DNA of 53,864 nucleotides from Schmidtea nova. Taxonomy: Eukaryota. Within the stretch, counting starts at the first letter, position 1. The number at the start of each line of letters is the position of its first letter. The DNA is taken from positions 133,486,001 through 133,539,864 of the forward strand of contig CM097882.1 of the NCBI GenBank assembly GCA_044892505.1, in the 5' to 3' direction. The translations under genes and the position numbers were made by a program. The notes below the pieces were generated by a model. That model was given only the letters and a program-made list of their open reading frames with translations, searched no databases and was not told the origin of the DNA. Positions 1,793-41,700 of the stretch are shown piece by piece.

Positions 1793-2811
1793 TTAGTACT
1801 TCGTTATATTATCTTTCATCTGGATAACAAGGCACAGTCGTTTAAGAATTGTATCGACCACTTTTGCCAGGAAATCAGGATAGATGTGTGACCATTCCTC
1901 ATGCAGATGCGTTTCAAGTTCGGAGGAGTTACGGGCAATAGGAATCCTTTTGCTAACTCGTCTACCAAGGACGTCCTACAGAAACTCAATAGGATTCAGA
2001 TCAGGGCTTTGTCGAACCCAATCCAAAACATTGATGCTGTGCTGCAGAAAGAATTCCTTCATAATGAGCAAAGTATGGATTTGTGCATTATCCTATTGGA
2101 AAATGAGCCCCTCAATTTCTGGGAGAAAGAGAACAAGCTCATTTTCCAGAATGGCACGGTATTCCACTGACGTCATGTGATTGCTGCACTTCACTAGAGA
2201 ACCAGTTCCAAAAGCTGATAAAAGACTCCAAAACATGATGGAGCCTCCTCCATCTTTCACAGTTGACTGAATGCAGTCAGGATGAAATCGTTCTTTTACA
2301 CGACGCCAGCAGAATTGCTGTCCATCAGATTTGAAAAGAGTGAAGCGTGATTCATCACTCCAAATGACTGAACGTCATTGTTCTGCTGTCAACTCCTTCT
2401 CTCGCGGCACCACTTTAAGCGACGATGACGAATTGTTTCTGTAATCAAAAGCTTCCTTGCGCAGTATCTGCCATAGAAACTATGAAAATGTAATGCACAA
2501 CGAATGGTGGACATACTGACATGTACATGACTAGTGTTAATTGTGGACATTAACTTGGACAGGGGGAACCGACGATGAGCCACTAGAAGTCGTTTCAGCT
2601 GCCGTTGTGTACAGATGCTCAGAAGTTTAGGGTGGCCTGGCCGTTGCTTGTTGACATGTGTCTGCTCCTGGCGGTACTTCCTCAGAAAGTATTTAATAGT
2701 TCCTTTAGGATGGCCAGTCAATGCAGCAGTTTCCCTTTGACTTTTTCCACAAAGGTAACATCCGTAAATAATGCCTTTCTGAAAGTCTGTAAGCTCTCTC
2801 CGAGTAGCCAT
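1793..2811 (-). pseudogene. Tc1-family DD34E transposase, disrupted by one frameshift and several stops
   Basis: N-terminal HTH region (MATRRELTDFQKGII...GHPKLLS), then after a frameshift near 2390 WSDESRF, FQ*DNA and SPDLNPIE with 34 residues between D and E; matching TIR pair not found. Confidence 0.85.
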
Positions 2812-4023
2812 ATTGTAAGAAAGTGACAATCCTCCATTAACATGACTCACTGTTGTGTGCTTGTGTGAGTAGTCATATTCTGTGTGTGAGTGTGTGCGTT
2901 TGTACATGTGTGCATGCAGCACTTTGAAAGTGTTGGTGACCTTTGTTCCCATTGCTGTTCATATTTGCACTGCAAACGTTCATTATAAACTGATATATAT
3001 AAATAACTGCCTGACTGGAGATTTTTGGTATGTCGGGGTACAACAATGACAGTTGAGTATTTAATATTAATTTTTGACTTGAGCCATTTATTTGTCGAGG
3101 GAAGTATTTAAGTTAAGGTCTAATATTTGAAAAAATGAACAAATGTTGAAATTTTAATTTTTCACACTTAAATTACCAATCAGAATATTCCATATTTCAG
3201 ACACTTGAAAAAGGCGACACTGAAAATTTGTATTGAATAGAAAATCATAGTTTTTATCTATTGGAAAGTATTTGAAATATCTTACTTCATGTTTCTATAT
3301 AAATTACACTAAAACCACAATAAGCGAAAAATATGAGTAGTAAGTCCATCTAAGACAATTTTAAGCCGGTTTATCCAAGGCCCAACTTGGTCGCTTTAGG
3401 AAACAAACCAGCAATTTATATGTTTTTTGAACTTATTTTGTAGCCAATCTAATTTTCATGCTCGAAAACGCCTAAATTCTGCTTGATCTTTTTACTCTTA
3501 CTCATCATCTGGCTCAAAATTAATTTTTAAGAGAAAAAAAACAAATTTGAATGAAATTAAATATAAATATTTCATTCAGTTTATTTTTTTTATTCGTGAC
3601 TACGTCATGCAGTTCGTCATTCTGATTATGTCAGGGGAAGGTTTTAGGGAAAAGTTTTGGAACCAATATGTCTCCAAAAAGTTTGGTAATGACTCCTCTA
3701 AACTAACAAAAATTAAACATTGATTGTTAAATAAAACAAGTAGTAGGATGTGTCCCCGTCAGATCAGTAACCCCCCCCCCTCAAATTTTTTAAAGTTACA
3801 TAACACCGGACACTTGACCATTACATAACTCGTACGTGACCAGCGTACTCGTGCAAAGACACACTTATGGCACGTGTTTCCAATGGCAACTACTACTTTT
3901 AGAATTTTTTATATCATCCGCACGTGCCCGGCACACTTATTGACTATTACATCATCCGCGCGTGTCCGCCATGCTTATTGACCAGCACACTTAGTGACCA
4001 ACACACCATCAGGTAATCACTAC

Positions 4024-4137
4024 CCGCCAACCGCCAACCGCCAACAACCAACCGCCAACTGCCCACCGCCGACCGCCGACCACCAACCGCCATCCGCCAT
4101 CCGCCATCCGCCATCCGCCATCCGCCAACTGCCCACT
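4024..4137 (+). repeat. GC-rich 7-bp minisatellite (CCGCCAW) in the left TIR; mirrored at ~19072-19203
   Basis: Tandem CCGCCAA/CCGCCAT/CCGCCGA units. Confidence 0.9.
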
Positions 4138-4538
4138 GCGCTCCGCTGCGCTCAACTGCGATCCATTAAATTATCGAAAATCTATATTAGTATTATAATT
4201 ATATAGTTTTCAAGTTATATAAATGCAAGATTTCTCATCAGGATTCAGATTCGTAATGCTTTCATGAAGTCCATAAAAGTTTTAAGATATAACATATATT
4301 TTTATTCTTAATTCATGCCATTATTTAGAAAATATGTAATCAACTATCTTAATGGTAAAAAAATAATCCGGAATGGTCTTTATATAAAAATATACAAGTT
4401 TATACAATCTGTTTACTAACTACTTTATCAGTAGTATTTGATAATTTTATTTAAATTAATCAAATTTATTTTTTAATTACTTTATCTTTATTTCTATATT
4501 AGTCAATTATGGTCCGATTTTTATGAAAACTTGTATAC

Positions 4539-4880
4539 ATATCAAATTCAATATGCTGAATCCGAATTTGTTACAAAAAATAGGGAAAAAAATTAGTCCA
4601 AAGTGAGAGTTGAACCTGGGCCTCTCACATATAAAAAAATTTTAAATGATTTTTCTCGACTAATACTTGTCAGATTTGAACCAAAATTTCTATTTATATC
4701 AAATTCAATATGCTGAATCCGAATTTGTTACAAAAAATAGAAAAAAAAATTAGTCCAAAGTGGGAGTTGAACCTGGGCCTCTCACATATAAAAAAATTTT
4801 AATTGATTTTCTCAACTAATACTTGTGAGATTTTAACCAAAATTTCTATTTATATCAAATTCAATACGCTGAATCCGATT
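4539..4880 (+). repeat. ~156-bp tandem repeat (two full copies plus a partial) in the left TIR; mirrored at ~18325-18665
   Basis: ATATCAAATTCAATAYGCTGAATCCGA starts at 4539, 4696 and 4852. Confidence 0.9.
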
Positions 4881-5197
4881 CCTTAACAAAATTTTCATAA
4901 AAACGGCCAAAGAAAAAATTATTCAACCTTGAGAGTTAAAACTGGGGTCTCACAATTAGAAATCCATAGCCTTTCCAACTAAGCTACATTCCACACTTTT
5001 AATAAACAAAATTTTAACATATATTTGATTTTTCTNNNNNNNNNNNNNNNNNNNNNNNNNNNNNNNNNNNNNNNNNNNNNNNNNNNNNNNNNNNNNNNNN
5101 NNNNNNNNNNNNNNNNNNNNNNNNNNNNNNNNNNNNNNNNNNNNNNNNNNNNNNNNNNNNNNNNNNNNNNNNNNNNNNNNNNNNNNNNNNNNNNNNN

Positions 5198-5298
5198 TTG
5201 AACGCGCGTGAAACGCGCGTTCTTCTTCCTTGTTGTATAAGACAAATCACAGTACGCATTGAACGCGCGTGAAACGCGCGTTCTTCTTCCCTTGTTGT
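5198..5298 (+). repeat. 61-bp-period units each containing a perfect 10-bp-stem hairpin; mirrored at 17912-17998
   Basis: GAACGCGCGT-GAA-ACGCGCGTTC at 5200-5222 and 5261-5283; adjacent to an N gap. Confidence 0.9.
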
Positions 5299-5303
5299 TT
5301 AAG

Positions 5304-5378
<75 letters not shown>
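5304..5378. repeat. (ATA)25 microsatellite inside the left TIR
   Basis: Direct reading; the mirror position in the right TIR is an N gap. Confidence 0.95.
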
Positions 5379-5381
<3 letters not shown>

Positions 5382-5445
5382 CACACAAATAAAACTTGAC
5401 ACAAAATAAAAAAAAGACATTTTCAAATAACAAAATTTATTAAAA

Positions 5446-5895
5446 TCAAAATACGTGAGATATTCTGGCATTGTTGACTCTCCAAATTGGAGTCATAACA
5501 TCATTCAAATCAAGTTTATACCCTTGAATTGTAATGTTAATATACCAGCTTTCATTATCAATTAATTGAATCTCTTCAAATGAATCGAAGAATTTGGTTT
5601 GCCGATTATTAATGACTATGTTTTCATTGCAACATAATTTCTTATTGATCTGATTCAAAACTTTATTGAGAGATAATACATCTTCTTTCGATATAGTTCC
5701 ATAAAGATTCGAATATTGAGTCTTACTCAATTTAACAGGATTTGAAAGACTGAAATCTATTTCACTAACCAAAAAATACATTTTATGGCCATGATATATT
5801 TGAACTGGCTTCAAAATAGCTTTCTTTGATTTAACTGGTTTGTCTGAATCAATTGTATTAGATCCATTATTGCTAAATAATTTAGTTCCTAACAT
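5446..5895 (-). CDS. Polinton orphan protein, 149 aa from ATG 5895; weak resemblance to OB-fold ssDNA-binding proteins
   Basis: Open 450-nt frame in AT-rich DNA, TATAAATA 42 bp upstream, stop inside the TIR followed by AATAAA; SSB idea rests only on the C-terminal pattern YINITIQGY..PIWRVNNARI. Confidence 0.65.
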   Translation of the reverse strand: MLGTKLFSNNGSNTIDSDKPVKSKKAILKPVQIYHGHKMYFLVSEIDFSLSNPVKLSKTQYSNLYGTISKEDVLSLNKVLNQINKKLCCNENIVINNRQTKFFDSFEEIQLIDNESWYINITIQGYKLDLNDVMTPIWRVNNARISHVF

Positions 5896-6136
5896 TTTAA
5901 AATAATAATCTTTAATCACTTAAAGCTTATATTTATACTAAAATAACAATCGTGTATGCAACCAATCAAAATACTATGATTGAAATACATTCAAACTATA
6001 ATTCAATTAAACAAAAAAAAAAAAAAACTTAAATAAAATAACAATAAAAACTAATAACTATTTAAATACTTTAACAATAAAATATAAAAAGAAGATTAAA
6101 TAAAAATAAATACAATTAAAGAATAACAATTTATTA

Positions 6137-6497
6137 TTAAATAACATCTTGGGCTCTATGCCACCTTTCTAACTGATAAAGCAGCTCTTCTTTATCTTTT
6201 AAGAACCTCCAGTTTGGGCAACATTTGCAATGAATGCAGCAAATGGGCTCCAACTTTATCGGAGGCTCTTTCATATTCCTTTTGTGTTCCCCGATCACCT
6301 CTTTCAGGTTCACGCCGGAGAACATCCATACCTTGAAGGAAATGAACTCTGGAGCCCAAAACATCATTTCCTTCATTTCTTCAGGGTATAATCTTGCCAT
6401 TGTTTGCAATGCTATTTGCATTAGTGATTCTAAAATAATTAAATTAAAAATTAATTAAAATAAAACAAATAGGCTTACCGTCCAAGGAGCTAGACAT
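6137..6497 (-). CDS. Spliced Cys-rich orphan, 103 aa; exons 6497-6479 and 6429-6137 (49-bp intron)
   Basis: ATG TCT AGC TCC TTG GAC G|gtaagc...ttttag|AA TCA CTA ATG joins in frame (MSSSLDESLMQIALQ); CCIHCKCCP cluster; TATATATA 40 bp upstream; AATAAA after the stop. Confidence 0.7.
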
Positions 6498-6604
6498 GTT
6501 TTTTCATTTTTAACTGAATAAGTGTTTCGTATATATACAAAATTTTGAAACACACTACACCCAATCAGAAACATACACACTCATTACGTATACATGACAA
6601 ATAC

Positions 6605-7075
6605 TTAGGTAATACTTAGCAAAAAGTTTAGGAAATCTTCCTCCTCATTCATCGATTTTATTTCGTTAATAATTTGTTCAACCAATTCATGATAATCCAA
6701 GGTTTTAATACCAAGTATTACTACTTTGCCACTTGCAAAAACGTTTACACATAATGGATTAAATTTAGAATATCTCAAAGCTGGAAATATTTCTGGTTCA
6801 TAAACACAATTAGTTTTCTTCAATAATAAATTTAAATTAACACGGGATCCTATATCTGCAGTTACTGTAATTGATTGAATTTGAATATCTTCAATTGGAT
6901 ATTGTAAATCTTCAATTTTTAAAGGTTGTTTGCACCCCATTATTCGACATTTACCTGATTTGAAAAATAAAATCGGATACTTTCCACTTCTATCGACAAT
7001 TTGTTGTGGTTTCTCCATTGGAAATTTCATGTGCGAAACTGAGCATTTACCTTTATAATTTATGTTGGTCAGCAT
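6605..7075 (-). CDS. TBP-like: TATA-binding protein (TBP)-like protein, 156 aa
   Basis: Two TBP repeats: LTNIN...ILFFKSGKCRIMGCK and IQIQSIT...VYEPEIFPALRY...VNVFASGKVVILGIK, matching yeast TBP LQNIV...ALIFASGKMVVTGAK and FKIQNIV...SYEPELFPGLIY...LLIFVSGKIVLTGAK. Confidence 0.9.
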   Translation of the reverse strand: MLTNINYKGKCSVSHMKFPMEKPQQIVDRSGKYPILFFKSGKCRIMGCKQPLKIEDLQYPIEDIQIQSITVTADIGSRVNLNLLLKKTNCVYEPEIFPALRYSKFNPLCVNVFASGKVVILGIKTLDYHELVEQIINEIKSMNEEEDFLNFLLSIT

Positions 7076-7166
7076 TTATGATGTAATAAAATTTAAATAT
7101 TTTTTATTCGTGTAAAACAATTAATTAAAACAAATATAAACAATAACAATTTCTTTAATATATTAA

Positions 7167-7790
7167 ATGGAATTGAGAAACGACGCAGTATATCAAATTG
7201 TTGGTCCAAGTGGAAGTGGGAAAACATTGTTTGTTTGTAAATTGTTACAATCAAATATGTTTAAATCAAAATTTAATAAAATATATTGGCACCGGGGAGC
7301 TGATGATGAACATGGTTTGACACAAGACCAATTTTGTAAGATAAAAATGACAACAATTAAAGGATTTGATAAAAACTGGTCATCTAGATTACGACAAGGT
7401 GATGTTATTATTATTGATGATTTGTATCAAGAAGCTAATAAAGAAAAGGACTTTAATAATTTATTCACGAAAATAGCTAGACATAAAGGAGTTACAGTTA
7501 TTTTTATTACTCAAAATTTATTTCATCAAGGTGGAGCTCACCGAACTCGTAATTTAAATGTTCAATATCTAGTTGTTTTTAAAAATCCCAGAGATGCAAC
7601 AGTTATTGATTTTCTTGCAAGACAAGCTTACCCTAATAATCGTAGTTTTTTAATTGATGCATTTCAAGATGCAACTCAAATTCCACATGGGTATATTTTT
7701 CTGGATTTCACACAACAATGTCCTGATGAATTACGAGTTAGTACCGATATTTTCAATAAAGAAGGTGCAATGATTTATAAACAAAGTTGA
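7167..7790 (+). CDS. ATPase: A32/FtsK-HerA family genome-packaging ATPase, 207 aa
   Basis: Walker A GPSGSGKT, Walker B IIIDD, ARH..VIFITQNLF, FKNPRD. Confidence 0.93.
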   Translation: MELRNDAVYQIVGPSGSGKTLFVCKLLQSNMFKSKFNKIYWHRGADDEHGLTQDQFCKIKMTTIKGFDKNWSSRLRQGDVIIIDDLYQEANKEKDFNNLFTKIARHKGVTVIFITQNLFHQGGAHRTRNLNVQYLVVFKNPRDATVIDFLARQAYPNNRSFLIDAFQDATQIPHGYIFLDFTQQCPDELRVSTDIFNKEGAMIYKQS

Positions 7791-7810
7791 AATAATAAAT
7801 TACATCAATA

Positions 7811-8347
7811 ATGTTTTTAAAATCACGCACAAAGATATTAAAGTCGCCTAAAATTAAAAAAGTTTTTAAAAAGAAACGTCAAACTAAAGTACCACCAAAG
7901 ACTAGTTACACGTCACCGAAGAAACTTATTATTGAAAATATTCCTGCAAAGAATCTTATTTCACATAATCTGAAACCAAAAGAATCTTTAGAAAAAATTG
8001 AAAATGAAATAAAAACATCAAATCATCGTAGTTTCCCATTTTTCAATGCATTACTTAAGGCACCTAGTATTAAAAGAATTAGTATTTTACAATCGTTTCC
8101 AAATTATGTTATTGATGATCTACTTGATGTTATAGTTAAAATCGTCAAAGGTAAAATTAATATAAGTAAATCAAATAAAAAAGTTCTAAACAAACACAAG
8201 AAACCATTGTTATCACTTGTAAATACTAAAAGTCGGAAACAAATGCGTAAAATCATATATAAACAACAAGGAGGATTTATTGCTGCATTATTACCATTAG
8301 CATTATCTTTATTAGGAGGAGTTGGTTTATTAGGACAACAAACATAA
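7811..8347 (+). CDS. Basic Lys-rich Polinton protein with QQGGF motif and hydrophobic C-terminus (putative core/membrane-active virion protein), 178 aa
   Basis: Open frame, very high Lys content, C-terminal KQQGGFIAALLPLALSLLGG; function inferred. Confidence 0.7.
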   Translation: MFLKSRTKILKSPKIKKVFKKKRQTKVPPKTSYTSPKKLIIENIPAKNLISHNLKPKESLEKIENEIKTSNHRSFPFFNALLKAPSIKRISILQSFPNYVIDDLLDVIVKIVKGKINISKSNKKVLNKHKKPLLSLVNTKSRKQMRKIIYKQQGGFIAALLPLALSLLGGVGLLGQQT

Positions 8348-8414
8348 ACAATGGGACAAACACCTTTGAGTCATTTAGCTAATCTTACATTGAATTTTAA
8401 ATCTACTTGTTGTA

Positions 8415-9481
8415 ATGGAGAAGATATGGACAAATCCGAAAGATCCAGCAGGCTTCGGTGGGGTAGAAAAGCTAAACAAAAAAGTAATCAAATCGAAAAA
8501 AGAGACGCAAAATTGGTTATCCGGACAACTGGCATACAGTCTAAACAAACCAATGCTGAAACGATTTCCAGTAAGAGCATATAAAACATATGGTATTAAC
8601 GATCTGTGGCAAATGGATTTGATGGAAATGATTCCTTATTCGAAAATCAATAAGGGTTTCAAATATATATTAACTTGTATTGATATTTTTAGTCGATATG
8701 CACGTGCGGTTCCAACCAAAACAAAATCTGCTAATGAAATGGCAGTGGCAATCAAAACATTGTTTGCTGATGGGCAGCCGAAAAACTTACAAACTGATTT
8801 AGGTAAGAAAATTAATTAATTTAATTTAATTTAATTTTTAATTTAGGTAAAGAATTTTACAATAGCAAAGTTAAAGAAATTTTAAAGGGAATAAATCATT
8901 ACTCAGTATTTTCACAATTCAAAGCAGCGCATGTTGAAAGATTTAATCGTACATTAAGAGAAAAATTGAAAAAGTATTTTGTGCATCAAGGGAATAAAAC
9001 ATGGATTAATGTTTTACCAAAGATTATTCATAGTTATAATCATTCACCGCATATAGGATTAAAGGGAATGAGACCAGTTGATGTTTCAATAAAAAATACA
9101 GCAAAGATTTTATTATCTCGCAAAGAAAACGCGAAAATGAAAAAACCTAAATATAAAGTTGGTGATCATGTTAGGATTAGTAAAATATCTGCTTCACCAT
9201 TCATCAAGAATTTTGATAGTAATTGGAGTGATGAGGTATTTCAGATCTCAAAAATTAATACTAGCCAAGATCCTGTCATGTATGTTATTTCTGATTCTGA
9301 AAATAATGTAGTTAGTGGTAAATTTTACGAGCAAGAATTGCAAGTTATTCCCCCACCAACAGTATTTAGAATTGAAAAAATTTTAAAAACTAAAATAGTG
9401 GGTAAAGATAAACAATATTATGTCAAATGGCATGGATATCAAAACCCATCATGGATATCAGCCAAAGATCTAGTAAAATGA
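8415..9481 (+). CDS. INT: Retroviral-like DDE integrase with C-terminal chromodomain, 340 aa; exons 8415-8802 and 8847-9481 (44-bp intron)
   Basis: WQMDL; splicing restores LQTDLG|KEFYN; HVERFNRTL; KYKVGDHVRIS; FRIEKIL..YYVKWHGY chromodomain. Confidence 0.93.
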
Positions 9482-10474
9482 ATTTTTATATGATTTTACC
9501 AAGTAATAGTTGCCCATTAATTCATCTAGATAATCAAGCCAGTAAATTCATGATCAATTTACAAAATCCAATTTATTTACGTGGTAATTGGGAAGTTGCA
9601 TTGCAAGATTTCACATTTGTATATAACAAATTTCCTTATTACAGCCAATGCAAAATTTACTACACGACAGTTACAACTGAAACTGTAAATGACTACTTTA
9701 AAGTTCAAACTAATTATGAAGATACTCAATATTTGAATGATAAAGTTGAATTACATCTAGATAAAATATATTTACATATAAATTGTTATATAACACCATT
9801 TTATTTTAAGTTTGAAAATATAGAAGATGCGAATAAATTATGGGTTTAATGAATTAAAAATCATTAGCAACAATTCAACTTATAAAATGCTTATTCCTTC
9901 TGATTATTCATCAGAGAAAATGCATATATCAATAAGTTATGATTTAGAAACAGATTTACTTTATGAATTCCAAGATGAAATATACATGACAAAAGTTGAA
10001 GATTTATATAATTATTTGACATTTTTCTGTTCTCATATATTTAAAGGTGTTGAAATTATTGACAATGTATTCAAATTTAAACTGAAAGATGAAGTTAAAG
10101 AAGTTATATTTGATCAAAAACTAATCAATACACTTGGATTAAAATATGAAAAATATCAAGATAGAGAAGTTAAAGGAATTCGCAAAGCCAAATTATTTAA
10201 TCATCATCAACAAATGTTCATTTACAGTAACATTATTGAACCAATTATTGTCGGTGATTCTCTAGTTCCTTTACTGAAATCAGTTTGGATTAATAAATAT
10301 GAACAAGATGAAGTAGTACAAATTGTTGTTGATAATCCCATGTATTTATCGCTTTCTACTTCATGTATAAACAACATTGAGATTAATATTCGTGACGATA
10401 GTGGAAAGCTTATCAACTTTTCAAAAGATTCAAAAACACATTTGACATTACATTTTCGTAAATTAGATGATTAA
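9478..10474 (+). CDS. mCP: Minor capsid protein (penton, single jelly-roll), encoded in two frames with the break at ~9824-9849
   Basis: N-terminal MNFYMILPSNS...WEVAL in frame 1 (ATG 9478); C-terminal MFIYSNII..VGDSLVPLL..INNIEINIRD..LTLHFRK in frame 2. Confidence 0.8.
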
Positions 10475-10859
10475 TCCGGACATAATTTCACTGTACAGTA
10501 ACGGACAAACTGGTGGGGAAATACCATATTTTGTTGGGAAACAGTATGGATCTGGTTGGTTAAGGACTATTGGGCGATTTACACTCCCAATTCTCAATCG
10601 TATTGGAAGCTTTGGTTTAAAAACGGCTAAAGATGTTATCATGAATGATCAAAAAATATTACCTTCATTAAAAACAAATGCTTTATCTGAAATTGGAAAA
10701 GCATTACCAAGTGTTGCAAATATGATACCGGGGGTTTCAAAAATGTTTAATAAAAATGAACCAGAACCGGAATCGGAAGCACCAGAAACTAAACGTAAAA
10801 AACATAGAAGGTATATAAACAATCGAATGAAAGGACGTGGAACTATATTTGAAATATGA
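10467..10859 (+). CDS. Small Polinton protein with QxG motifs upstream of MCP (putative core protein), 130 aa
   Basis: GQTGG..YFVGKQYGSG..R..LPIL pattern; start and stop overlap neighbours (ATGA). Confidence 0.75.
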   Translation: MINPDIISLYSNGQTGGEIPYFVGKQYGSGWLRTIGRFTLPILNRIGSFGLKTAKDVIMNDQKILPSLKTNALSEIGKALPSVANMIPGVSKMFNKNEPEPESEAPETKRKKHRRYINNRMKGRGTIFEI

Positions 10860-12076
10860 TTTGTGGTAAATCTGAATTATGTCTTTTTGATCGGCCTTCA
10901 CCTCAAGCGGTTATTGAATATGGGGCCTTTGAAGAAGTATTTCCAATGAATTCAATCACTGATAGTAGGAATGACGTTGAATTTTACATTAATGGTTCAC
11001 AAACTGAATATTTGGATTTGAATGATACTTTATTATCTGTTCAAGTGAAAGTTGTTAGTAGTGACTTTAAAGATTTAACTGTTAATGATGACGTAATACC
11101 TAATAATTTTTTGTTTCACACTCTTTTTAAAGACGCGATTCTTGAATTTAATAATATCAAGATTGAAGGAGGAAATAATACATATGCACACAAGGCAATA
11201 ATTGAAACTATTTTAAATTATAATAGTGATACTAAATTCACATGTCTTACTCCAATGGGATATGGAACTTCTGAAGAGAGAAAATCTTGGATTAAAAGCT
11301 CAAAACCTTTCACAATGTGTTCATCATTACAACTAGATTTTATGGATCAACCGAAATATTTACTCCCTGGTGTCAATGTCCACATTAGATTGAAAAGATC
11401 TGATTCATCATTATCATTATTTTCTAAAATTGGATCACCAAGATGTCAATTAATAGATGCAAAATTAATGATTCGTAGAGTTCGTGTTGAAGCATCGGTA
11501 TTAGCTGGTCATCAAATCGGTCTTAACACGAAACATGCAATTTATCCTATGAAAACTAAAGAAATTGTTCATTTTGCCATTGGTCAAGGAGCATCATCAT
11601 TTTACAAAGAACAAATTTTTGGAGATAGGAGAATGCCAAATTTCATTCTTGTAACTTTTCAAAGTGAAACTCAATACAATGGTTCATATACAGCTTCATG
11701 TTCAAAATTTAAACATTTTAATGTTACTTCATTATCTTTATCGAAAAATACTGATTTTAGAGAAACATATACTCAAGATTTTGAAAATAATAATTTCTGT
11801 ACTACATATATGCAAAGTATAATAAGGAATATGGGATATTTAGACCGAAACTTGAATTGTGGTATATCTCTTGAAGACTTTAAATCAAAATATCCATTCT
11901 TTACATTCGTTTTGGCACCAGATTTCGATTTGAATCAGAGTCAATTACCACAAAACGGTAATTTGCGATTAGATATAAAGTTTTCTAAACCTGTTGAAGA
12001 ACCTGTACATGTAATAATATATGGAGTTTTTGAAAACGAAATACAAATAACTGCTAATCGAACTGTATTAGTTTGA
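10856..12076 (+). CDS. MCP: Major capsid protein (double jelly-roll), 406 aa
   Basis: CGKSELCLF..PQAVIE, VEFYI.G..EYLDLNDTLL, GNLRLDIKFSKP, VIIYGVFEN are Polinton MCP hallmarks. Confidence 0.92.
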   Translation: MICGKSELCLFDRPSPQAVIEYGAFEEVFPMNSITDSRNDVEFYINGSQTEYLDLNDTLLSVQVKVVSSDFKDLTVNDDVIPNNFLFHTLFKDAILEFNNIKIEGGNNTYAHKAIIETILNYNSDTKFTCLTPMGYGTSEERKSWIKSSKPFTMCSSLQLDFMDQPKYLLPGVNVHIRLKRSDSSLSLFSKIGSPRCQLIDAKLMIRRVRVEASVLAGHQIGLNTKHAIYPMKTKEIVHFAIGQGASSFYKEQIFGDRRMPNFILVTFQSETQYNGSYTASCSKFKHFNVTSLSLSKNTDFRETYTQDFENNNFCTTYMQSIIRNMGYLDRNLNCGISLEDFKSKYPFFTFVLAPDFDLNQSQLPQNGNLRLDIKFSKPVEEPVHVIIYGVFENEIQITANRTVLV

Positions 12077-12120
12077 GCAAATATTACTATAAATATAGGG
12101 AATAAGTAAACAAATTTGAT

Positions 12121-12514
12121 ATGAAGTAAGTTTTTATTTACAATTTAATTTAATTTAATTAGTTCTATTCAGGTTAATCGAATTGGAAAACAATTATTAG
12201 GAAATGAGTTTGTTGGTGTATTCCCATTAGACAAAATTCCTTATTTAGATATCAATCAAGCTATAGTTGTCAATACTCAATCATCAACTCTTGGTGGGGA
12301 ACATTGGATTGCTGTCTATGTAAAACCGAACAAGATACACGTTTTTGAACCAATGGGATTTTATTATCCAGCTCTATTAGTTAGTAAACTGCAAACAATA
12401 GGTAAACCAATTGTGTATAATAAACATCGGTATCAAAATCCATTGACATCAACTTGTGGTCAACATTGTCTTGTTTGGTTAAATTATATGTATAAACGAA
12501 TTGATTTTAAATAA
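12121..12514 (+). CDS. PRO: Adenain/Ulp1-like cysteine protease, 118 aa; exons 12121-12125 and 12163-12514 (37-bp intron); absent from the ORF track
   Basis: ATGAA|gtaagt...aattag|TTCTATTCAG gives MNSIQVNRIG..FVGVFPLD; catalytic GEHW, FEPMG, YQN, TCGQHC. Confidence 0.88.
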
Positions 12515-12528
12515 ATGTATTAGTAAAA

Positions 12529-12936
12529 ATGTCTTGTTATTTTATTGATATTAGTATTTTTAAAAATGAATTTGGTGGATTTGTTATTAAGGAATTATGT
12601 ATGATAAATACTAATAATGTTTTAAGACCATTACATTGGGTGTTTTCAGCAAATGAATATCATGATGATCAACTACATAACGGTCAAAATTACTTTTGTC
12701 CAACGTGTATATTAAGTCCTATTGGTTCTGATCGTAAAAATGCAATATTTTATGTCACTGATGACAGAAAGGAAGAGATGTTAAAATTTTATTTTCCTTC
12801 TTTAAGAATTGTAAGATATTCAATGAAAGAACATCAGAAATTTCCAAGCAATATATCGTGTCCATATTATGATCATGATGATGATTGTGCATATAAAAAT
12901 TGTTTACTTGGTGTGTTGGATTATTTGAAATATTAA
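12529..12936 (+). CDS. DEDD-fold/Maelstrom-like protein with putative Zn-binding E..C-H-C motif, 135 aa
   Basis: YFIDIS..FVIKELCMI, IFYVTDDRKEEML, CPYYDHDDDCAYKN; pattern-level recognition only. Confidence 0.55.
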   Translation: MSCYFIDISIFKNEFGGFVIKELCMINTNNVLRPLHWVFSANEYHDDQLHNGQNYFCPTCILSPIGSDRKNAIFYVTDDRKEEMLKFYFPSLRIVRYSMKEHQKFPSNISCPYYDHDDDCAYKNCLLGVLDYLKY

Positions 12937-13088
12937 ATAAATGTATTATCCTACTTGTGTGTATCTTTTTATTCATTTTTGATTGGTTATTTATAGTAAT
13001 TGTGTGTTTTTTTTTTATAAATATATACAGATATACTTTGAATTTTGAAAACACTTTTACAATCACCCAACTTGAAGATATTTTGAAA

Positions 13089-16000
13089 ATGGTAAGATTT
13101 TAATTTTAATTATAATTATTTATCATTATTTATTTAGAATACTAATAACAGTAACAACAAAATGAATATCAATAAAAGAAGCATCAACTCTAACTTTGTA
13201 AGAATTTAAATATTTAATTAATTATTATTATTGGTTTTTTAGAGTATAAAATCAATTTTGAATGAAACAACAGCTTCAACAACTGCTCTGAATAATAACT
13301 TTGTAAGAATTTTAATATTTAATTATTCATTATTTTTGGTTTTTTAGAGTATGAAATCAATTTTGAATGAAACAATTGCTTCAACAACTTCTATGAATAA
13401 TAACTTTGTAAGATTTTAATATTAATTAAATTTTTATTAATTATTTTAATTTAGAATATGCATTCAAAAATACAGAATAATGAAAAAATACCGATGACAA
13501 ATAATTCAATGGATCTTAAAACGATAAAGAAAACTAATGCCAAAATTGTAAATAAAAAAATCAAATGTAAGTATTATTTAGTATTATTATTTTTAAGTAT
13601 TATTTCTTTTTTGAATATTAAGTTATAAACTTAAATTATATTTATTAATAAGATAATAAACATTATGATAATAAATAGTGTATATAATATGTTTTAAAAT
13701 AAATTATATACACACTAATTATTTTCATAATCATTTTATTACAAATTTAGTATTAATAATAACCTTTTTGTTGTGAAAGGTTAAAAAATGTATAATTTAA
13801 GTTATTACCTAATAAATTTATTAACCTTTAACATAAAATCTTAATTATGTAATAAATCAAATTAATGTTAAAATTTTAAATAATATTTTATATTTACATA
13901 GGCCCACTCTATCAGAATTATTGTAATTCGTCATTGAATCACAGTAATGATTGTCATGAACTTATGACGAGATATTATCGTCAAAAGTTCAATGGTTTTG
14001 ACTTTTTTATATGTCCCGTTTGCAAAACGTATACTACCCAAAATTACTCTGTCTTTTATCTTGATCATAAGGATCATCTTACTCAATTTAATTCAAATAA
14101 ATTAGAGTTTCTGAAATCTATTTATAAGAAATCATCTACCTTCTCTATTGTTAATAAAAAACGACCTGCTGATGTTAGGGAAAATATAAATATTTGTAAA
14201 ATTCCTAGGCATGAAATAATAATATTAAGTGACGATGAAGATTATAATAATCAAATAGGAGGATCTATAGATATAAGTAAGGAACCTCTTGTAGAATCAG
14301 ATTTAAAAGGATCTCGTCGAGCATTAAAATTTGATATTAATGAATATAATGTTAACCAAATATTGTTAACTGATAGGATCATCGCAAGACTAAATAATGA
14401 AATTATTAAAATGGGTAGTGTTAAGGTCCAATTTGCTATTAATATTCTTTTTGAAAAGGATGGAGCTTCGAAAGATGAATTTTTATCTAATAACGCTGAA
14501 GTTTTCTCTGAAAATTTTCTAAGTGAGGGGGTTAGAAAATTAAATGAAAAAATTGAAAGATTCTCGCAATTAGGTAGTGGTTGGACAATTAATAGAATTA
14601 GGGAAATTCATTTTATTATTACTAAATTTTCTCTTATAAATAGATTATCTGGACATGGTGATGTTAAAACACCTGTTGCTTTGAAAGGAAAAAGAGCTAT
14701 AATTAATGTAAAAAACACAGATGAATCATGCTTTATATATAGTATTTTAGCATTACAAAAATATGATCAAATAAGTATTAACCGCACAAGATCTCAAAGT
14801 TATAGTAGTTTCTTGAAAGAATTAAATTTTGATAGAATAGTTGATTGTCCCATGAAACTCTGCAATATAACTCGATTTGAGAAAAATAATCCAGGTTTAG
14901 CGATTAATGTCTTATCTTATAACCCTACAGTAATTAATAATGACCTTGACGAAAATGATGACTTTGTTCCTCATCATCCACATTTAGATATTGTTCGTCG
15001 TACTTCAGTAACTGGTGTAACACCTTTATATTTATTATTAATCGAGGATAATGGAAATTATCATTATACCGCTGTAATTAATTTGCAGCATTTAATGAAT
15101 TCTCATAGTAATGACATTGTAAATGTAAGAATTAGGTGTAATTGGTGTCCGATTTGCTTAAATGGTTTCCGTCTTCAAGATGCATTTGACCGACATTATA
15201 GTTTATGCATTAAAAATCAAGTAGGTACCACACTTTATAGTTTACCGACTAACAAGTATTTAGACTTTACTGATTACTCTAAAACTGTAACACCTCCTTT
15301 CGTTATTTACGCAGACTTTGAGTCTATTTTACCTGAGGATATAAGATACCACCAAAAACATTTACCTATATCAGCAGGGTTGTTATTAATTAATAATTTT
15401 ACTAATACTAAATCTTATTATAGTTTTATTGGCTTAAAATGTGTTCGTAAGTTTTTGAAAAAGGTTGACGAAATTGCTAAAACTATAGTACTCCCATATT
15501 ATGATATTTACGGTAATGTTCCAATTAATACTTTATCTTTTACTGAGGAAAGAGATTTTCGGTCTTGTTCACACTGTTATCTTTGTAAAAAACTAATTAG
15601 AAATCGTGTAAGAGATCACGATCACTTCTCTGGTCGATATCTTGGTGCTGCTTGTAGTCTTTGTAATATTGCTAGGAGAAATCGAAAACACTTACCAGTA
15701 GTATTTCATAACTTACGTGGGTATGATATGCATCACATTTTGAAATATGGCCTTAAAAAATTTACTTCTTGGGAGTTGAACATCATTCCAACTACTACAG
15801 AGAAATTTATTTCTTTAATTGCTCATATTGATAAACTGTCTGTTCGTTTTATTGATAGTTATCAGTTCATTAATGCCTCATTAGCAAAAGCGGTTCAAAC
15901 TGTTTCAACTTTTCCATTAACTGCTTCTGAGTTTAATGGAACAATAATGGACTGCAAGGGTATTTTTCCTTTTAACTTTGCGACAAGTTTAGAAATTCTT

Positions 16001-17647
16001 GAAACGACTATGGAATTACCCCCTATCTGGGATAAAGTGTCTGAGACTGAATACTTGAGAGCTCAACAAATTTGGAGTGAAAATAATTGTAACACTTTGT
16101 TAGATTATATGATGGTATACTTGAAATTAGACGTTTTCCTTCTTGCTGATTACTTTCAACAATTTCGCGCGAAGTCTATTGCTCACAATAGATTAGATCC
16201 CTTGAACTTTTATGGAATTCCAGGAATGTCATGGGCTTCAGCATTGATGACATTGAAGGAACCGATTGAACTTCTTCAAGACATGGAAATGTACAATTTC
16301 TATGAAGGAGGAATACGGGGTGGGTTAACTTTTGTTAATAAGCACTATGCTGTTACTGATGAAAATACAGAATTGTTATATATAGATATTAACAATCTGT
16401 ATGGTTGGGCTCTTAGCCAAAGTCTTCCTTTTGGTGATTTTAGTTGGGTTCTTGAAAATCTTGACTCTGTCTTGTTTGAATGTATAAATTCAGATATTGA
16501 AAATCTTCCATATGGTTACACATTGGAAGTTGATATTGATATTCCTGAAAATTTACACGAATTTTTGGATAATTTCCCGGTGGCACCTGAAAAGAAACTC
16601 CCTCCAGGTTCCAAAGTAGAGAAGTTGATGCTTACGCATCATCCCAAGAGGAACTATGTTATTCATTGGAGACTTTTGAAAATGTTTGTTTTGCTTGGTG
16701 TTAAGGTTGTTAAGATTCATAGAGCTATTAGATTCAAACAGTCTGCTATATTTAAAGAATATATAGATATAAATACTTTTTTAAGAGCAAATTCGACTAA
16801 TGAACTGGATAAAAACTACTTTAAGTTACTTAACAATAGCTTATATGGTAAAACTGTAGAGAATCTGAAAAAGCGGATGAATTTGCGATTGTGTAATTCA
16901 TCTGAAAAGATGATTATATATTCTTCTAAACCATCTTTCAAAAAGTCTATAAAAATTGATGATAATTTGATTGCAGCTCATTTGAATAAGGATTTGATAT
17001 GTTTAGATAGACCTAGTTATATCGGTCAAACGGTTCTAGATCTATCTAAATTAAGAATGTATCAACTACAGTATCTTGAATTACAGAAATATAGGGAACT
17101 TTTTAATTGTAAGATTGACATTGTTGCTGGCGACACTGACTCTTTCTTCCTTGAAATTACTAATTGTAAATTAACTAAACTTTTACCTGCGATGATATCG
17201 GATAATCTTTTGGACACATCAAATTACGATCCTAATCATCCTATGTACAGTAGAAATCTTGATTCTGTAATCGGTAAATTTAAAGATGAGAGTAAAGGAC
17301 TTGGATATAAGGAATGGGTTTTCTTACGACCGAAATGCTATAGTCTTTTAGGTGAAGCTGAAACCAATAAAGCGAAGGGAGTTGATTTGGAAGGAACTGA
17401 GATAAAACATCTTTCTTATCTTGAGTGTTATAATAATAATCAAGTCTTTTCTGTTCCTCAAACTCGGATAGGGACGCGAAATCATCAATTGTATACTTTT
17501 AAGAATACTAAAATTGCTTTAAGTAACAACGATGATAAGCGTCAGTGGATGGGGAAAAATACTAGTTTTGCATTCGGGCATTATTTAGGAGTCAATTCAT
17601 TGAACGACGGAGAAGATGAATTCCTGATGTCTATATTTCCAGATTGA
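13089..17647 (+). CDS. pPolB: Protein-primed family B DNA polymerase, predicted 1346 aa from 6 exons: 13089-13091, 13138-13197, 13243-13302, 13348-13407, 13455-13566, 13902-17647
   Basis: ExoI YADFES, ExoII FHNLRGYD, ExoIII YLKLDV, Pol A YIDINNLY, Pol B KLLNNSLYGK, Pol C GDTDS, KCY; all five GT-AG introns join in frame; the track start at 13934 is an internal TTG. Confidence 0.93.
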
Positions 17648-17657
17648 AGAAAGAATA

Positions 17658-19512
17658 ATTTTGATTTTAATAAATTTTGTTATTTGAAAATGTCTTTTTT
17701 TTTTATTTTGTGTCNNNNNNNNNNNNNNNNNNNNNNNNNNNNNNNNNNNNNNNNNNNNNNNNNNNNNNNNNNNNNNNNNNNNNNNNNNNNNNNNNNNNNN
17801 NNNNNNNNNNNNNNNNNNNNNNNNNNNNNNNNNNNNNNNNNNNNNNNNNNNNNNNNNNNNNNNNNNNNNNNNNNNNNNNNNNNNNNNNNNNNNNNNNNNN
17901 NNNNNNNNNNNAGAACGCGCGTTTCACGCGCGTTCAATGCGTACTGTGATTTGTCTTATACAACAAGGAAGAAGAACGCGCGTTTCACGCGCGTTCAANN
18001 NNNNNNNNNNNNNNNNNNNNNNNNNNNNNNNNNNNNNNNNNNNNNNNNNNNNNNNNNNNNNNNNNNNNNNNNNNNNNNNNNNNNNNNNNNNNNNNNNNNN
18101 NNNNNNNNNNNNNNNNNNNNNNNNNNNNNNNNNNNNNNNNNNNNNNNNNNNNNNNNNNNNNNNNNNNNNAGAAAAATCAAATATATGTTAAAATTTTGTT
18201 TATTAAAAGTGTGGAATGTAGCTTAGTTGGAAAGGCTATGGATTTCTAATTGTGAGACCCCAGTTTTAACTCTCAAGGTTGAATAATTTTTTCTTTGGCC
18301 GTTTTTATGAAAATTTTGTTAAGGAATCGGATTCAGCGTATTGAATTTGATATAAATAGAAATTTTGGTTAAAATCTCACAAGTATTAGTTGAGAAAATC
18401 AATTAAAATTTTTTTATATGTGAGAGGCCCAGGTTCAACTCCCACTTTGGACTAATTTTTTTTTCTATTTTTTGTAACAAATTCGGATTCAGCATATTGA
18501 ATTTGATATAAATAGAAATTTTGGTTCAAATCTGACAAGTATTAGTCGAGAAAAATCATTTAAAATTTTTTTATATGTGAGAGGCCCAGGTTCAACTCTC
18601 ACTTTGGACTAATTTTTTTCCCTATTTTTTGTAACAAATTCGGATTCAGCATATTGAATTTGATATGTATACAAGTTTTCATAAAAATCGGACCATAATT
18701 GACTAATATAGAAATAAAGATAAAGTAATTAAAAAATAAATTTGATTAATTTAAATAAAATTATCAAATACTACTGATAAAGTAGTTAGTAAACAGATTG
18801 TATAAATTTGTATATTTTTATATAAAGACCATTCCGGATTATTTTTTTACCATTAAGATAGTTGATTACATATTTTCTAAATAATGGCATGAATTAAGAA
18901 TAAAAATATATGTTATATCTTTAAACTTTTATGGACTTCATGAAAGCATTACGAATCTGAATCCTGATGAGAAATCTTGCATTTATATAACTTGAAAACT
19001 ATATAATTATAATACTAATATAGATTTTCGATAATTTAATGGATCGCAGTTGAGCGCAGCGGAGCGCAGTGGGCGGTTGGCGGTTGGCGGTTGGCGGTTG
19101 GCGGTTGGCGGATGGCGGATGGCGGATGGCGGTTGGTGGTCCGCGGTCGGCGGTGGGCAGTTGGCGGTTGGTTGTTGGTTGTGGGCGGTTGGCGGTTGGC
19201 GGGTAGTGATTACCTGATGGTGTGTTGGTCACTAAGTGTGCCAGTTACTACCCATAAGTGTGCTGGTCAATAAGCATGGCGGGCACACGCGGATGATGCA
19301 ATGGTCAATAAGTGTGCCGGGCACGTGCGGATGATACAAAAAATTCTAAAAGTAGTAGTTGCCATTGGTGTAGTAGTGCCATAAGTGTGTCTTTGCACAA
19401 GTGCGCTGGTCACGTACGAGTTATGTAATGGTCAAGTGTCCGGTGTTATGTAACTTTAAAAAATTTGAGGGGGGGGGGGGTAACTGATCTGACGGGGACA
19501 CATCCTACTACT
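17658..19512 (-). repeat. Right TIR of the Polinton (~1.85 kb, contains two N gaps)
   Basis: Begins ATTTTGATTTTAATAAATTTTG 11 bp after the PolB stop; mirrors 3739-5452. Confidence 0.92.
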
Positions 19513-38758: not shown

Positions 38759-41700
38759 CAAGGGCGCTGGCAGAATTTTTTGAAAGGTGGTGCAGAATAA
38801 AACAATGTCTATGTTAAATCTTTATAGTCCCCTCAACATATTTTCGAGAAATTCAAAACTCTATGAGACCAAAATAATAACTAATTGGCTATTTTGGTGG
38901 AAATTTTCGAATATAGATTACAGTAATCTCTACTGACCTACGGTAGTATTGTACTCAAATTTAACACTAAGACTTCAATAATTCTAATTTTTTTCATGTT
39001 AGAAACATGTTTATTACACATTATAACATTATTTAAAAACAAACGAACGAAAGCAAAAATTATGCGTGAATTCGTACGTTGATGGATGATGAGAAACTCA
39101 TTGACATATTACGATTCATAACGTTTTGTATCGTTTTTATGTTTGCTAAGTGAATAAGCGGACTTACATTTGGTGAGACCAATAATAATAAGTATGCTTA
39201 TTATTTTCCATTTTGTCAATATATGGTTTCTAGCCTTCTAAATGTAGTAATGTACTGTTTATTTTAGTGCGAAATGTGCAATATTAACATTGTATAGGCT
39301 ATACCATAAAATTAACAAAATTATCTTAGTTATTTGTTTAAAAAAATAAAAACCTCATTTACCCAATAATGAGTGATATAAGGAATTTTTTTTATCAAGA
39401 ATTGAAAGGAGAATGAAAAAATTCAGGAGAGCTCTCAGATACTTCATTCGGATCCTTCCACTTCTATGTCATTGCCAACGTTTATCGTCTGATTTTTCAA
39501 TAAAAGGAGATAATTTTGAAGAAACTGTACAGTGATTTAGATATTGGTATGTATTTAAACAAGCATATTAATGACGAGGAACGATTGAAACTTTTAAAAA
39601 CCCACTGGGTACCCAGTATAGAATATAATTTCAAAAAGGATGTAGATACTATTGCAAAACGAGCATTTCGTCTGGAATAGTTAGCAATTTATTCTTGGAT
39701 AGGTTACTCTGCCGCTCTAAAAGGCCAATTTTGCCGCTTGTGTGTATTGTTTCAACCTATAGTGCATTGCAGTTTACTTGGAGCATTTATTGTAAAGCCA
39801 TGCGTTCAATATAATAAATTTAATGAATTGGCAAAAAAGTCGTGCATCCACTTAATGGCATCGTGATGCAATGAAACAATCAGAAAATTTCTTAGAGTAG
39901 CATCAGGAAAACAAGCAGACGTATATCAGCTTTAAAACAGTGCTCATGCCAAAGAAATTGATGCAAATAGAGTGAAACTTTGATCTATAATAGCTTCGAT
40001 GATTTTTTGTGCGTGTCATGATCTTCCTTTTCGGGCTGTATTCACAGACTTACTTCATTTTCGAGTGATTTCTGGAGATAAAATTTTGCAACAACACTTG
40101 GAATCAGGGGCTAAGAATGTACTATATATATCTCATCAGTCCCATAATGAAATTATTGATTCTCTAAAAAGTTCGTTGAGAGAAACGTTGATTAATAAAG
40201 TTAAAGAAGCGCAAGTTTCCTCTGTTTTAACTGATGAAACTGCTGACATTGCAGTGATAGAATTGATATTTATTGGAATTCTCTATTTATATCAAGATGA
40301 AAATAATATATTCAAAATTCATGAAGAATTTATGTGATTTTCTGCTCTATCTGACTTAGATGCCAAATCTATATCTAGGGTAATAATGAAGGCAATACAA
40401 GATTTAGGTCTAGATCTTAACCTTTTGGTTGGTCAAGGATACGATGGATGTGCTACAATGTTTGGTCAAATAGGTGGGATTCAAAAAATAATACGATACT
40501 TATACCCAAAAGCAATTTTTTTTCATTGCGCAAGCCATCATTTAAATCTTGTGATTAATGACACAAACAAAATGAATGAAATTAGAAATACAGTTGAGAC
40601 AATTAAGGAAATAATAAACCTTTTCTGGGAATCTACTCTACGAAGAAATATGGTTACCAATATTCCATTACTATGTGAAATTCGCTGGTCTGCCAAACAT
40701 AAAGCAATAAGAATTTTTAAACAGAAATTTAAAGAAATAATTGCTGCTTCGGAAAATATTGCTGAAAATGGAAACTCACAAAAAAGGCAAAAGGCACACA
40801 TGCTTTACACTGCAGCAACTAATAGTATTTTTGTAGTAGCACTGCACACAACTGCTTTATATTCATCAAAATTAGAACCAATTACTACTGCGTTGCAAGA
40901 AATTCAACTTGACCTGCAATCTCTCAATACAGAAATTGGCAAGCTATTGAAGATTTTCCATCGACACAGAGAACATGTTGAAGAAAATTTCAAACTTATC
41001 TTTCAAAATATTAAAAAATCATGTGACTTAATGAATATTGACCTTAAATTTCCCTGTATTGTGAAGAAAAAGGCACACAAATCCAATCAACCAGCAGATT
41101 TTATTGAGGAGTATTTTAGAAGATTGATATTCATTTCTTATTTAGATTCGATTATTTGTGCCTTGAATGAGCATTTTTCTGAGACCCATAGTACACCCTT
41201 CTCACTTTTGCAACTGCACCCAGGGGAAATAAAATTGTTGAAAAAAACTGATTTTTTAAAGATTGCAACAAATTTAGAAGAGTTTAATGGAAATTTTCTT
41301 ATGTATAACTTTATTAGTGAAGCTTTTACATGGTATGAATCTTGGGCCGAAGATGACGTAGATACATCAAAGGTGGAATATATAGATTTATTAGATAAGG
41401 CTAAAAGATTTTATCCTGAAATTTTTTAAGCTATTAAAATTGGCCTCACTCTGCCCATCACAACATGTACTGTGGAACGCTCATTTAGCACATTACGAAG
41501 AGCAAAGACATGGACAAGGTCAACCATGCCAGAAGAACGATTTTCAGGTTTATTTATGATGAGCGTACATAGAAAGAGAATTGATGGCAACGAAGAATTT
41601 GTGAACGCTTCCATATCAAAGTTTGACGAGAAACCGAGAAGATTACAATTTATATTTTTAGAAAATGACAAAAATAAATGACAGGTTTAATTTAAAAATC

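Follow-up and report, generated by a model that had tools for sequence, protein, structure and literature searches.

Late transcription in beta- and gamma-herpesviruses, as described in the available text of PMC6541308, relies on a virus-encoded mimic of TATA-binding protein (TBP), known as ORF24, BcRF1 or UL87, and on a TATTWAA element located about 30 bp upstream of the start sites. Polintons and adintoviruses share terminal inverted repeats (TIRs), PolB, an integrase (INT), an ATPase, a protease and a capsid module, according to the accessible parts of PMC8502044, 10.1101/697771 and PMC8097293, and figure legends, the only place in the accessible parts of the first two sources, name a TBP-like gene for related viruses. 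A promoter motif or a TBP target was not found in the Polinton and adintovirus literature at hand: the word "promoter" does not occur in the available text of PMC8502044, nor do TATA or transcription in that of PMC8097293. Here we analyze a Polinton of ~15.7 kb, with long TIRs and a GC content of ~29%, that lies in a stretch of 53,864 nucleotides from the genome of Schmidtea nova (GCA_044892505.1, contig CM097882.1, forward-strand positions 133,486,001 to 133,539,864; hereafter the window). The genes of its virion module are preceded by a box, NATAAAC[AG], that probably serves as a directional core promoter specific to the element, with the element's own reduced TBP as predicted reader, an interpretation to which we give a probability of roughly 0.65.

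This arrangement resembles the herpesvirus system in that a TBP-like protein of the virus would be paired with a TATA box altered at one base on structural genes. However, the herpesvirus mimic itself binds Pol II and belongs to a complex of six proteins, whereas the Polinton protein is a stand-alone TBP fold of 156 aa that retains a TFIIB-type stirrup; moreover, C7 is the base that has changed, NATAAAC[AG] and not TATTWAA is the enriched box, and the virus lineages are unrelated. Members of the six-protein late complex found no Pfam match among the ORFs of the element at E<=0.05, several of these ORFs being without a family. On sequence and covariation, the Polinton pair would be likened to the herpesvirus vTBP system by analogy of function, not by homology. 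Virophages and Gezel/PgVV likewise carry a short motif upstream of many ORFs, taken as monocistronic expression in the accessible text of 10.1101/2022.07.28.501842, but their motifs are borrowed from a giant virus, whereas the Polinton box appears tied to the element's own factor. No description of the box was found in the literature surveyed, in which subscription journals were little covered and whose supplements may list TBP-like ORFs.

A box upstream of the virion-module genes

The original prediction placed TATA boxes at a fixed 32-42 nt upstream of seven start codons of the element, and one more 73 nt from that of PolB. The letters and spacing of all seven are as described, as are the PolB box (TATAAATA at 13016, ATG at 13089) and the embedding of three boxes in upstream coding sequence. 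Of the 13 starts, 7 have a TATAWAH that begins 32-42 nt upstream, compared with 2.5% of random element positions, an enrichment with a binomial P of ~9e-9 for a window and motif picked post hoc; across the element 17 of 468 ATGs, the seven among them, have TATAWAH at this distance. Four plus-strand boxes contain TATAAAC: TATAAACA at 7135..7142, 32 nt from the ATPase ATG (7167) in a head-to-head intergenic region; TATAAACA at 7776..7783, inside the ATPase frame and 35 nt upstream of the basic-protein start; TATAAACA at 10814..10821, inside the frame of the gene that starts at 10467 and 42 nt upstream of the major capsid protein gene (MCP); and TATAAACG at 12491..12498, inside the protease frame and 38 nt upstream of the gene that starts at 12529. 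The TBP-like gene, the 10467 gene, the putative minor capsid gene (mCP) and INT had been described as having no box, which holds for the first of them only, because three boxes on the plus strand had been missed: TATAAACA at 8258..8265, inside the basic-protein frame and 93 nt upstream of an ORF (8351) that overlaps INT; GATAAACA at 9407..9414, inside the integrase frame and 44 nt upstream of the in-frame mCP ATG at 9451; and TATAAACA at 10366..10373, inside the mCP frame and 101 nt upstream of the 10467 gene.

In total, the interior of the element contains 11 occurrences of NATAAAC[AG], all of them on the plus strand, whereas 34 kb of host flank has 10 on this strand and 12 on the other. Seven of the 11 (7135, 7776, 8258, 9407, 10366, 10814 and 12491) are the nearest box at least 30 nt from a start, upstream of six genes and the 8351 ORF; those at 8343 and 12419 are second boxes, and those at 6799 and 13655 have no nearby start. 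The single class of ordinary TATA boxes originally described gives way to two classes, since TATAAAC[AG] has a C at position 7 and hence falls outside the TATAWAWR consensus, which is matched only at 5937, 6537, 13016 and 12088. The last of these, TATAAATA at 12088..12095 on the plus strand, 33 nt from the protease ATG, is intermediate between the two classes and is the local stand-in for the NATAAAC[AG] of many relatives.

Relatives were collected by an MCP-alignment scan, which yielded 70 metagenome loci at 28-60% identity, besides subfamilies of the host genome at 66-89%. Starts were placed by homology (that of mCP in the window by hand, at 9451), leaving out those with <130 nt of upstream sequence or >=75% alike over the last 60 nt. 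Of the 169 non-redundant virion-module starts, 146 have NATAAAC[AG] in their upstream 130 nt, compared with 12.7 +/- 3.6 over 200 dinucleotide shuffles (maximum 25), and the box occurs in only 1 of 269 control windows in the MCP interior. The box precedes 14/15 ATPase, 9/10 basic-protein, 14/16 mCP, 29/29 10467-type, 42/46 MCP, 18/31 protease and 15/17 12529-type starts, all five starts of a 77-aa ORF (the 8351 ORF of the window) and none of 11 TBP-gene starts, in loci spanning 27-49% GC. TATAWAWR is not enriched upstream of the virion-module starts (28 vs 19.8 shuffled, maximum 30), ATAAAA[AG] occurs 18 times vs 32.5, and synonymous-Ile forms and one-base variants also stay within or below the shuffle range. 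Because canonical TATAWAWR remains inside that range, C7 is selected for and not merely tolerated. Enrichment is confined to the sense strand (reverse complement 3 vs 4.7 shuffled), and the first base is degenerate, with T in 82% and A in only 5%. A fixed distance to the ATG has to be given up: the 156 boxes show a floor and a mode, with 87 at 30-49 nt (54 of them at 31-39 nt), 66 at 50-129 nt and three at 8-10 nt, the interval of 11-30 nt being empty. In the own family, 30 loci with the TBP gene are near-identical, and the presence of the box in all 29 that match the anchor is uninformative on selection.

Chance in AT-rich DNA combined with conserved peptides (Ile-Asn, Tyr-Lys) could be invoked, given the low GC content of the element and the many boxes that lie within conserved codons. 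This explanation has a negligible probability, as it is refuted by the shuffle and strand results above and by tests of synonymous codons and of turnover. The conservation at synonymous sites that the original prediction had envisaged is indeed seen: of the 167 Ile-Asn pairs that are followed by a purine and lie at most 130 nt from the end of the coding sequence, 117 are coded ATA AAC, compared with 7 of 130 elsewhere and ~7% expected from codon usage. The same test on the box codons of the other reading frame gives 52/73 near the end of the coding sequence vs 5/21 further in. Correspondingly, the box is depleted in gene interiors, both in sense (6 vs 12.7 expected) and in antisense (1 vs 17.7). 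The box of the 10467-type gene lies either ~100 nt upstream, inside mCP, or 33-43 nt upstream, and on an MCP tree (27 of 29 loci) its position switches at least 3-4 times without ever being lost. The box is under nucleotide-level selection, is directional and keeps a floor of 31 nt before starts; it is a real and conserved feature, of greater specificity than the original description gave it. What stands of the earlier view are promoter-like boxes for individual genes, some of them lying within coding sequence, and a connection with the encoded TBP, without the single class and the constant spacing.

The position of the boxes also bears on whether the motif acts on RNA, either in re-initiation or shunting on a polycistronic message or as a poly(A)-signal variant, NATAAA, that ends the upstream gene. 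The genes do abut or overlap, the first base is degenerate, and TATAAA, CATAAA and GATAAA each differ from AATAAA by one base. However, 96 of 145 boxes precede the upstream stop, so cleavage would cut the reading frame, and the ATPase box is present in six loci whose TBP neighbor sits on the opposite strand, two observations that exclude a poly(A) signal and weaken re-initiation. In addition, the scarcity of A as first base speaks against action on RNA, and the hard floor suits the geometry of a promoter. An RNA motif is therefore improbable, and the box is very probably a core promoter.

The TBP-like protein as candidate reader

The TBP-like gene (6605..7075, minus strand; PF00352, E=1.9e-18), which lacks an upstream NATAAAC[AG], encodes a protein of 156 aa with a shortened first repeat that scores 66.5 bits against PF00352, for a cut-off of 22.9. 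Its structure model (pLDDT 95.9) aligns to TBP with a Z of 12.9 and an rmsd of 2.6 over 144 residues, which identifies the saddle fold. The protein has 108 homologues at 39-72% identity, and a profile search retrieved 60 clusters at E up to 1e-30. Its second repeat is intact, with F97, F113, an acidic YEPE stirrup and a YEPE-FP motif; E93 and E95 of the stirrup are kept in 102 and 107 of the 108 homologues, the binding of TFIIB and DNA being predicted only. R101, C109 and N111, present in 107/108 homologues, align to I, V and L of the host TBP (PGLIY, VLLIF) and are, by the numbering we assume, equivalent to yeast I194, V203 and L205. In the yeast TBPm3 protein, the changes I194F/V203T/L205V alter specificity at base 2, according to the accessible text of PMC1636458. 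The Polinton protein is substituted at the same three positions, but its residues R, C and N are natural and nearly invariant. When read on its opposite strand, the box is YGTTTAT and has G at base 2, and it could possibly be bound in reversed orientation; a Hoogsteen reading of the C7 variant may also apply, for which the literature searched gave no source. In comparison with cellular TBP on TATAWAWR, the fold, the predicted box-to-start geometry and the YEPE-FP motif are the same, whereas the Polinton first repeat is shortened, one Phe is lost, residues of the DNA face are polar, and the box has a fixed C7 and a loose first base.

Covariation of box and protein points in the same direction. 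As the original prediction had suggested, TBP-less relatives were compared, in the form of a second Polinton family of the host genome (L126+L127, C3 near 29.27-29.29 Mb) with TIRs, integrase, ATPase, capsid genes and PolB. Ten regions were fetched, four of which contain neighboring copies of the TBP-bearing family; in the other six, a wide TBP profile run against ORFs down to 25 aa gave no match better than E 0.11. One complete copy has no box at core, ATPase, 323-aa gene, MCP, mCP, protease or fibre-like gene and a single box-motif site 127 nt before INT, and no box precedes MCP in any of 10 copies. In this family TATAWAAAA or TTATAAA abuts the ATG of INT, core, ATPase, 323-aa gene, MCP and mCP, possibly another promoter or translation signal; a TATA-type run abutting the ATG resembles poxvirus-type late starts. 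A further contig, L089 (3581-13073), whose MCP is 28% identical, encodes a divergent and longer TBP-like protein with L, H and T at the three base-2 positions. It has no ATAAAC box at ATPase or MCP, and TTAAGC is found 39-94 nt upstream of 6 of its 11 virion-module ORFs (another lies at 23 nt, outside the test window), with 1 of 1000 random window sets giving a hexamer as strong. A collection of viral contigs was scanned without finding relatives, and hence without extra TBP-less or L089-type elements; in a PF03175 search of the host genome, all matches belonged to the same clade or to PolB-only elements, and PF04665 and PF00770 searches gave few, weak matches. A link between TBP gene and box is supported at the sequence level by the conservation at synonymous sites, the absence of the box in the TBP-less family and its alteration beside a divergent TBP.

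A second class of promoter combines GATTGG, which we take to be a reversed CCAAT box, with a canonical TATA. GATTGG occurs only three times in the element, each time 29-35 nt upstream of a canonical TATA: at 5967 with TATAAATA at 5937 (5930..5967, minus strand), where the TATA is 42 nt from the ATG of an orphan ORF, orf149; at 6566 with TATATATA at 6537 (6530..6566, minus strand), where it is 40 nt from the ATG of an orphan gene at 6497; and at 12981 with TATAAATA at 13016 (12981..13023, plus strand), upstream of PolB. Among 14 non-redundant orf149-like homologues, 10 have the same pair, at a spacing of 26-27 nt, and TATAWAWR is found in 3/11 upstream regions of TBP genes, that of the window not among them. 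Two of the seven boxes originally reported thus form a separate host-type class, well supported for orf149 only, and are unlikely targets of the viral TBP.

A possible mechanism would begin at these GATTGG and canonical TATA genes, which would be read by the host machinery. Host-type promoters would fire first, and the TBP-like protein would then turn on the packaging and capsid genes by binding the box and recruiting host TFIIB and Pol II. Separate mRNAs would start ~25-30 nt downstream of the box, with 5' leaders of a few to ~75 nt. Like the original prediction, we infer that transcripts are monocistronic, have short 5' UTRs and follow an early-to-late order; the element's TBP probably reads the box, and action of the box late, after the host-type promoters, is slightly favored.

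Several observations weigh against this reading. The fourth intercalating Phe is missing from the shortened first repeat, only F38, F97 and F113 being present, and TRF2, which has lost such a Phe, does not bind TATA in the account given in the available part of PMC10005294. Wild-type TBP was crystallized on a C(-25) TATA variant, as recorded under 1qn3, so the host TBP may tolerate the C. The host has TBP paralogues with unusual residues, of which L148 (C1 473.81 Mb) and L149 (C2 358.71 Mb) have F and T at the equivalents of 194 and 203, two of the three changes that make up TBPm3; L147 and L150 represent additional copies of paralogues. The covariation involves two lineages, one TBP-less family and one contig with a divergent TBP, and a TBP gene is seen on 9 of the 70 metagenome contigs, most of which are too short to show one. 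No box precedes 23 of the 169 starts, 13 of them of the protease (in the window this gene has TATAAATA), and the loci share ancestry, so that these counts are not independent and P values overstate independence. The class-2 pair is weak outside orf149 (2/5 homologues of the 6497 gene under a strict pattern, 1/7 for PolB) and absent from both metagenome homologues of orf149, and the TBP gene of the window has no clear promoter of either class.

The missing Phe, the C(-25) crystal and the host paralogues also favor a real promoter that is read by the host, whether by canonical TBP tolerating the C, by a paralogue or by a forkhead-type factor, with the viral protein otherwise employed, e.g., as a TFIIB decoy. 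The forkhead consensus is RYAAAYA, which ATAAACA matches. A forkhead site was nevertheless rejected, as GTAAAC[AG] occurs 9 times vs 6.0 shuffled and the reverse complement of the box 3 times vs 4.7, the box being one-stranded. Against a host reader in general stand the selection for C7, the lack of the box in a TBP-less family of the same host, and the sharing of the box by loci that range from 27 to 49% GC. We therefore consider a host reader unlikely. More remote still is the possibility that a helper giant virus is the source of the box, as one of its late promoters. Helper promoters are used by virophages and by one Polinton-like virus (accessible text of 10.1101/2022.07.28.501842), but GT-AG introns indicate nuclear transcription, a TBP-like gene is encoded by the element itself, a change in that gene goes with a change in the box, and no helper is known for this element.

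The odds are about even that animal Polintons possess a one-protein orthogonal switch, in which base-reading residues of a minimal viral TBP co-evolve with a private box (ATAAAC[AG] in one clade and TTAAGC in another) and host Pol II is reprogrammed for virion genes. Such a switch would be the first promoter code for these elements, would have arisen convergently with the late complex of herpesviruses while being far simpler, and would make available a series of TBPs whose specificity has been altered in nature. Few DNA-binding proteins are as conserved as TBP, and a natural family with rewired specificity would inform basic transcription biology. Particles of animal Mavericks were unobserved as of PMC8097293, in its accessible text. 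For the control of Polinton capsid genes, the box and its candidate reader offer handles, a marker of the timing and cells of the virion program, and a guide to true gene starts.

Gene map and neighboring features

The element has the hallmarks of a Polinton/Maverick, namely TIRs, PolB, a retroviral-type integrase, ATPase, protease and capsid genes, the capsid labels deriving from size, order and homologues. At least 150 copies are present in the 1.25-Gb host genome, with TBP-like proteins that are 99-100% identical. The approximate TIRs occupy 3771..5452 (plus strand; inverted arms I1, I8, I10 and I25) and 17658..19478 (minus strand), and their interior contains tandem repeats of 156 nt as well as arrays of GC-rich heptamers (window 4477-4903 and 4001-4146, with mirror images in the right TIR). 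On the minus strand, orf149 (5446..5895; 149 aa), with its host-type promoter, has a weak DUF7006 match below the cut-off, and the orphan gene with its ATG at 6497 (6137..6497) is predicted to be spliced.

All other genes are on the plus strand. The A32-like packaging ATPase (7167..7790; PF04665, E=1.3e-6) is followed by the basic protein (7811..8347), a putative core protein by an inferred label and without a Pfam match. The 77-aa ORF (8351..8584), which has homologues in relatives, overlaps the 5' end of the integrase in a different frame from the integrase start and encodes a small Met-Gly...Cys-Cys protein; because an ATG is missing from the start of the integrase in several relatives, the enzyme may be expressed via this unit. 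The integrase itself (8415..9481; PF00665, PF00385) has a chromodomain and a predicted GT-AG intron near 8803-8846. The putative mCP (9451..10474), labeled from gene order, has its frame broken near 9840 in this copy and is a single frame in related subfamilies. A tandem duplicated mCP is found in L049, L050, L051, L088, L114 and L125, with the box also upstream of most second copies. The 10467 gene (10467..10859), a conserved gene of 130 aa that is presumably PZ-like, lies upstream of MCP (10856..12076), whose product of 406 aa is so labeled from size, position and homologues and has no Pfam match.

Downstream of MCP are the adenain-like protease (12121..12514; PF00770, E=3.3e-6), with a predicted intron at 12126-12172, and the 12529 gene (12529..12936; 135 aa), previously labeled Maelstrom-like; the gene is conserved, but no Pfam match stands behind the label. 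PolB (13089..17647) is of the protein-primed type with an endonuclease-VII-like insert, its 5' exons, of which the first is at 13089, being predicted only. As originally described, AATAAA follows several stops, at or just past 6 of 13. Short GT-AG introns are also predicted at ~6430-6479 and from 13092 onward, and the integrase is unbroken in metagenome relatives. Vertebrate Mavericks are reported as intronless in the accessible text of PMC8097293. PolB-only elements (L107-L110, L123), often in inverted pairs and possibly non-autonomous derivatives, have GATTGG and TATATAAA upstream of PolB. Finally, the host flanks contain a fragment of a Tc3-type transposase (PF01498) and a 347-aa ORF with a weak DUF659 match, within window 2389-2952 and 40386-41429.

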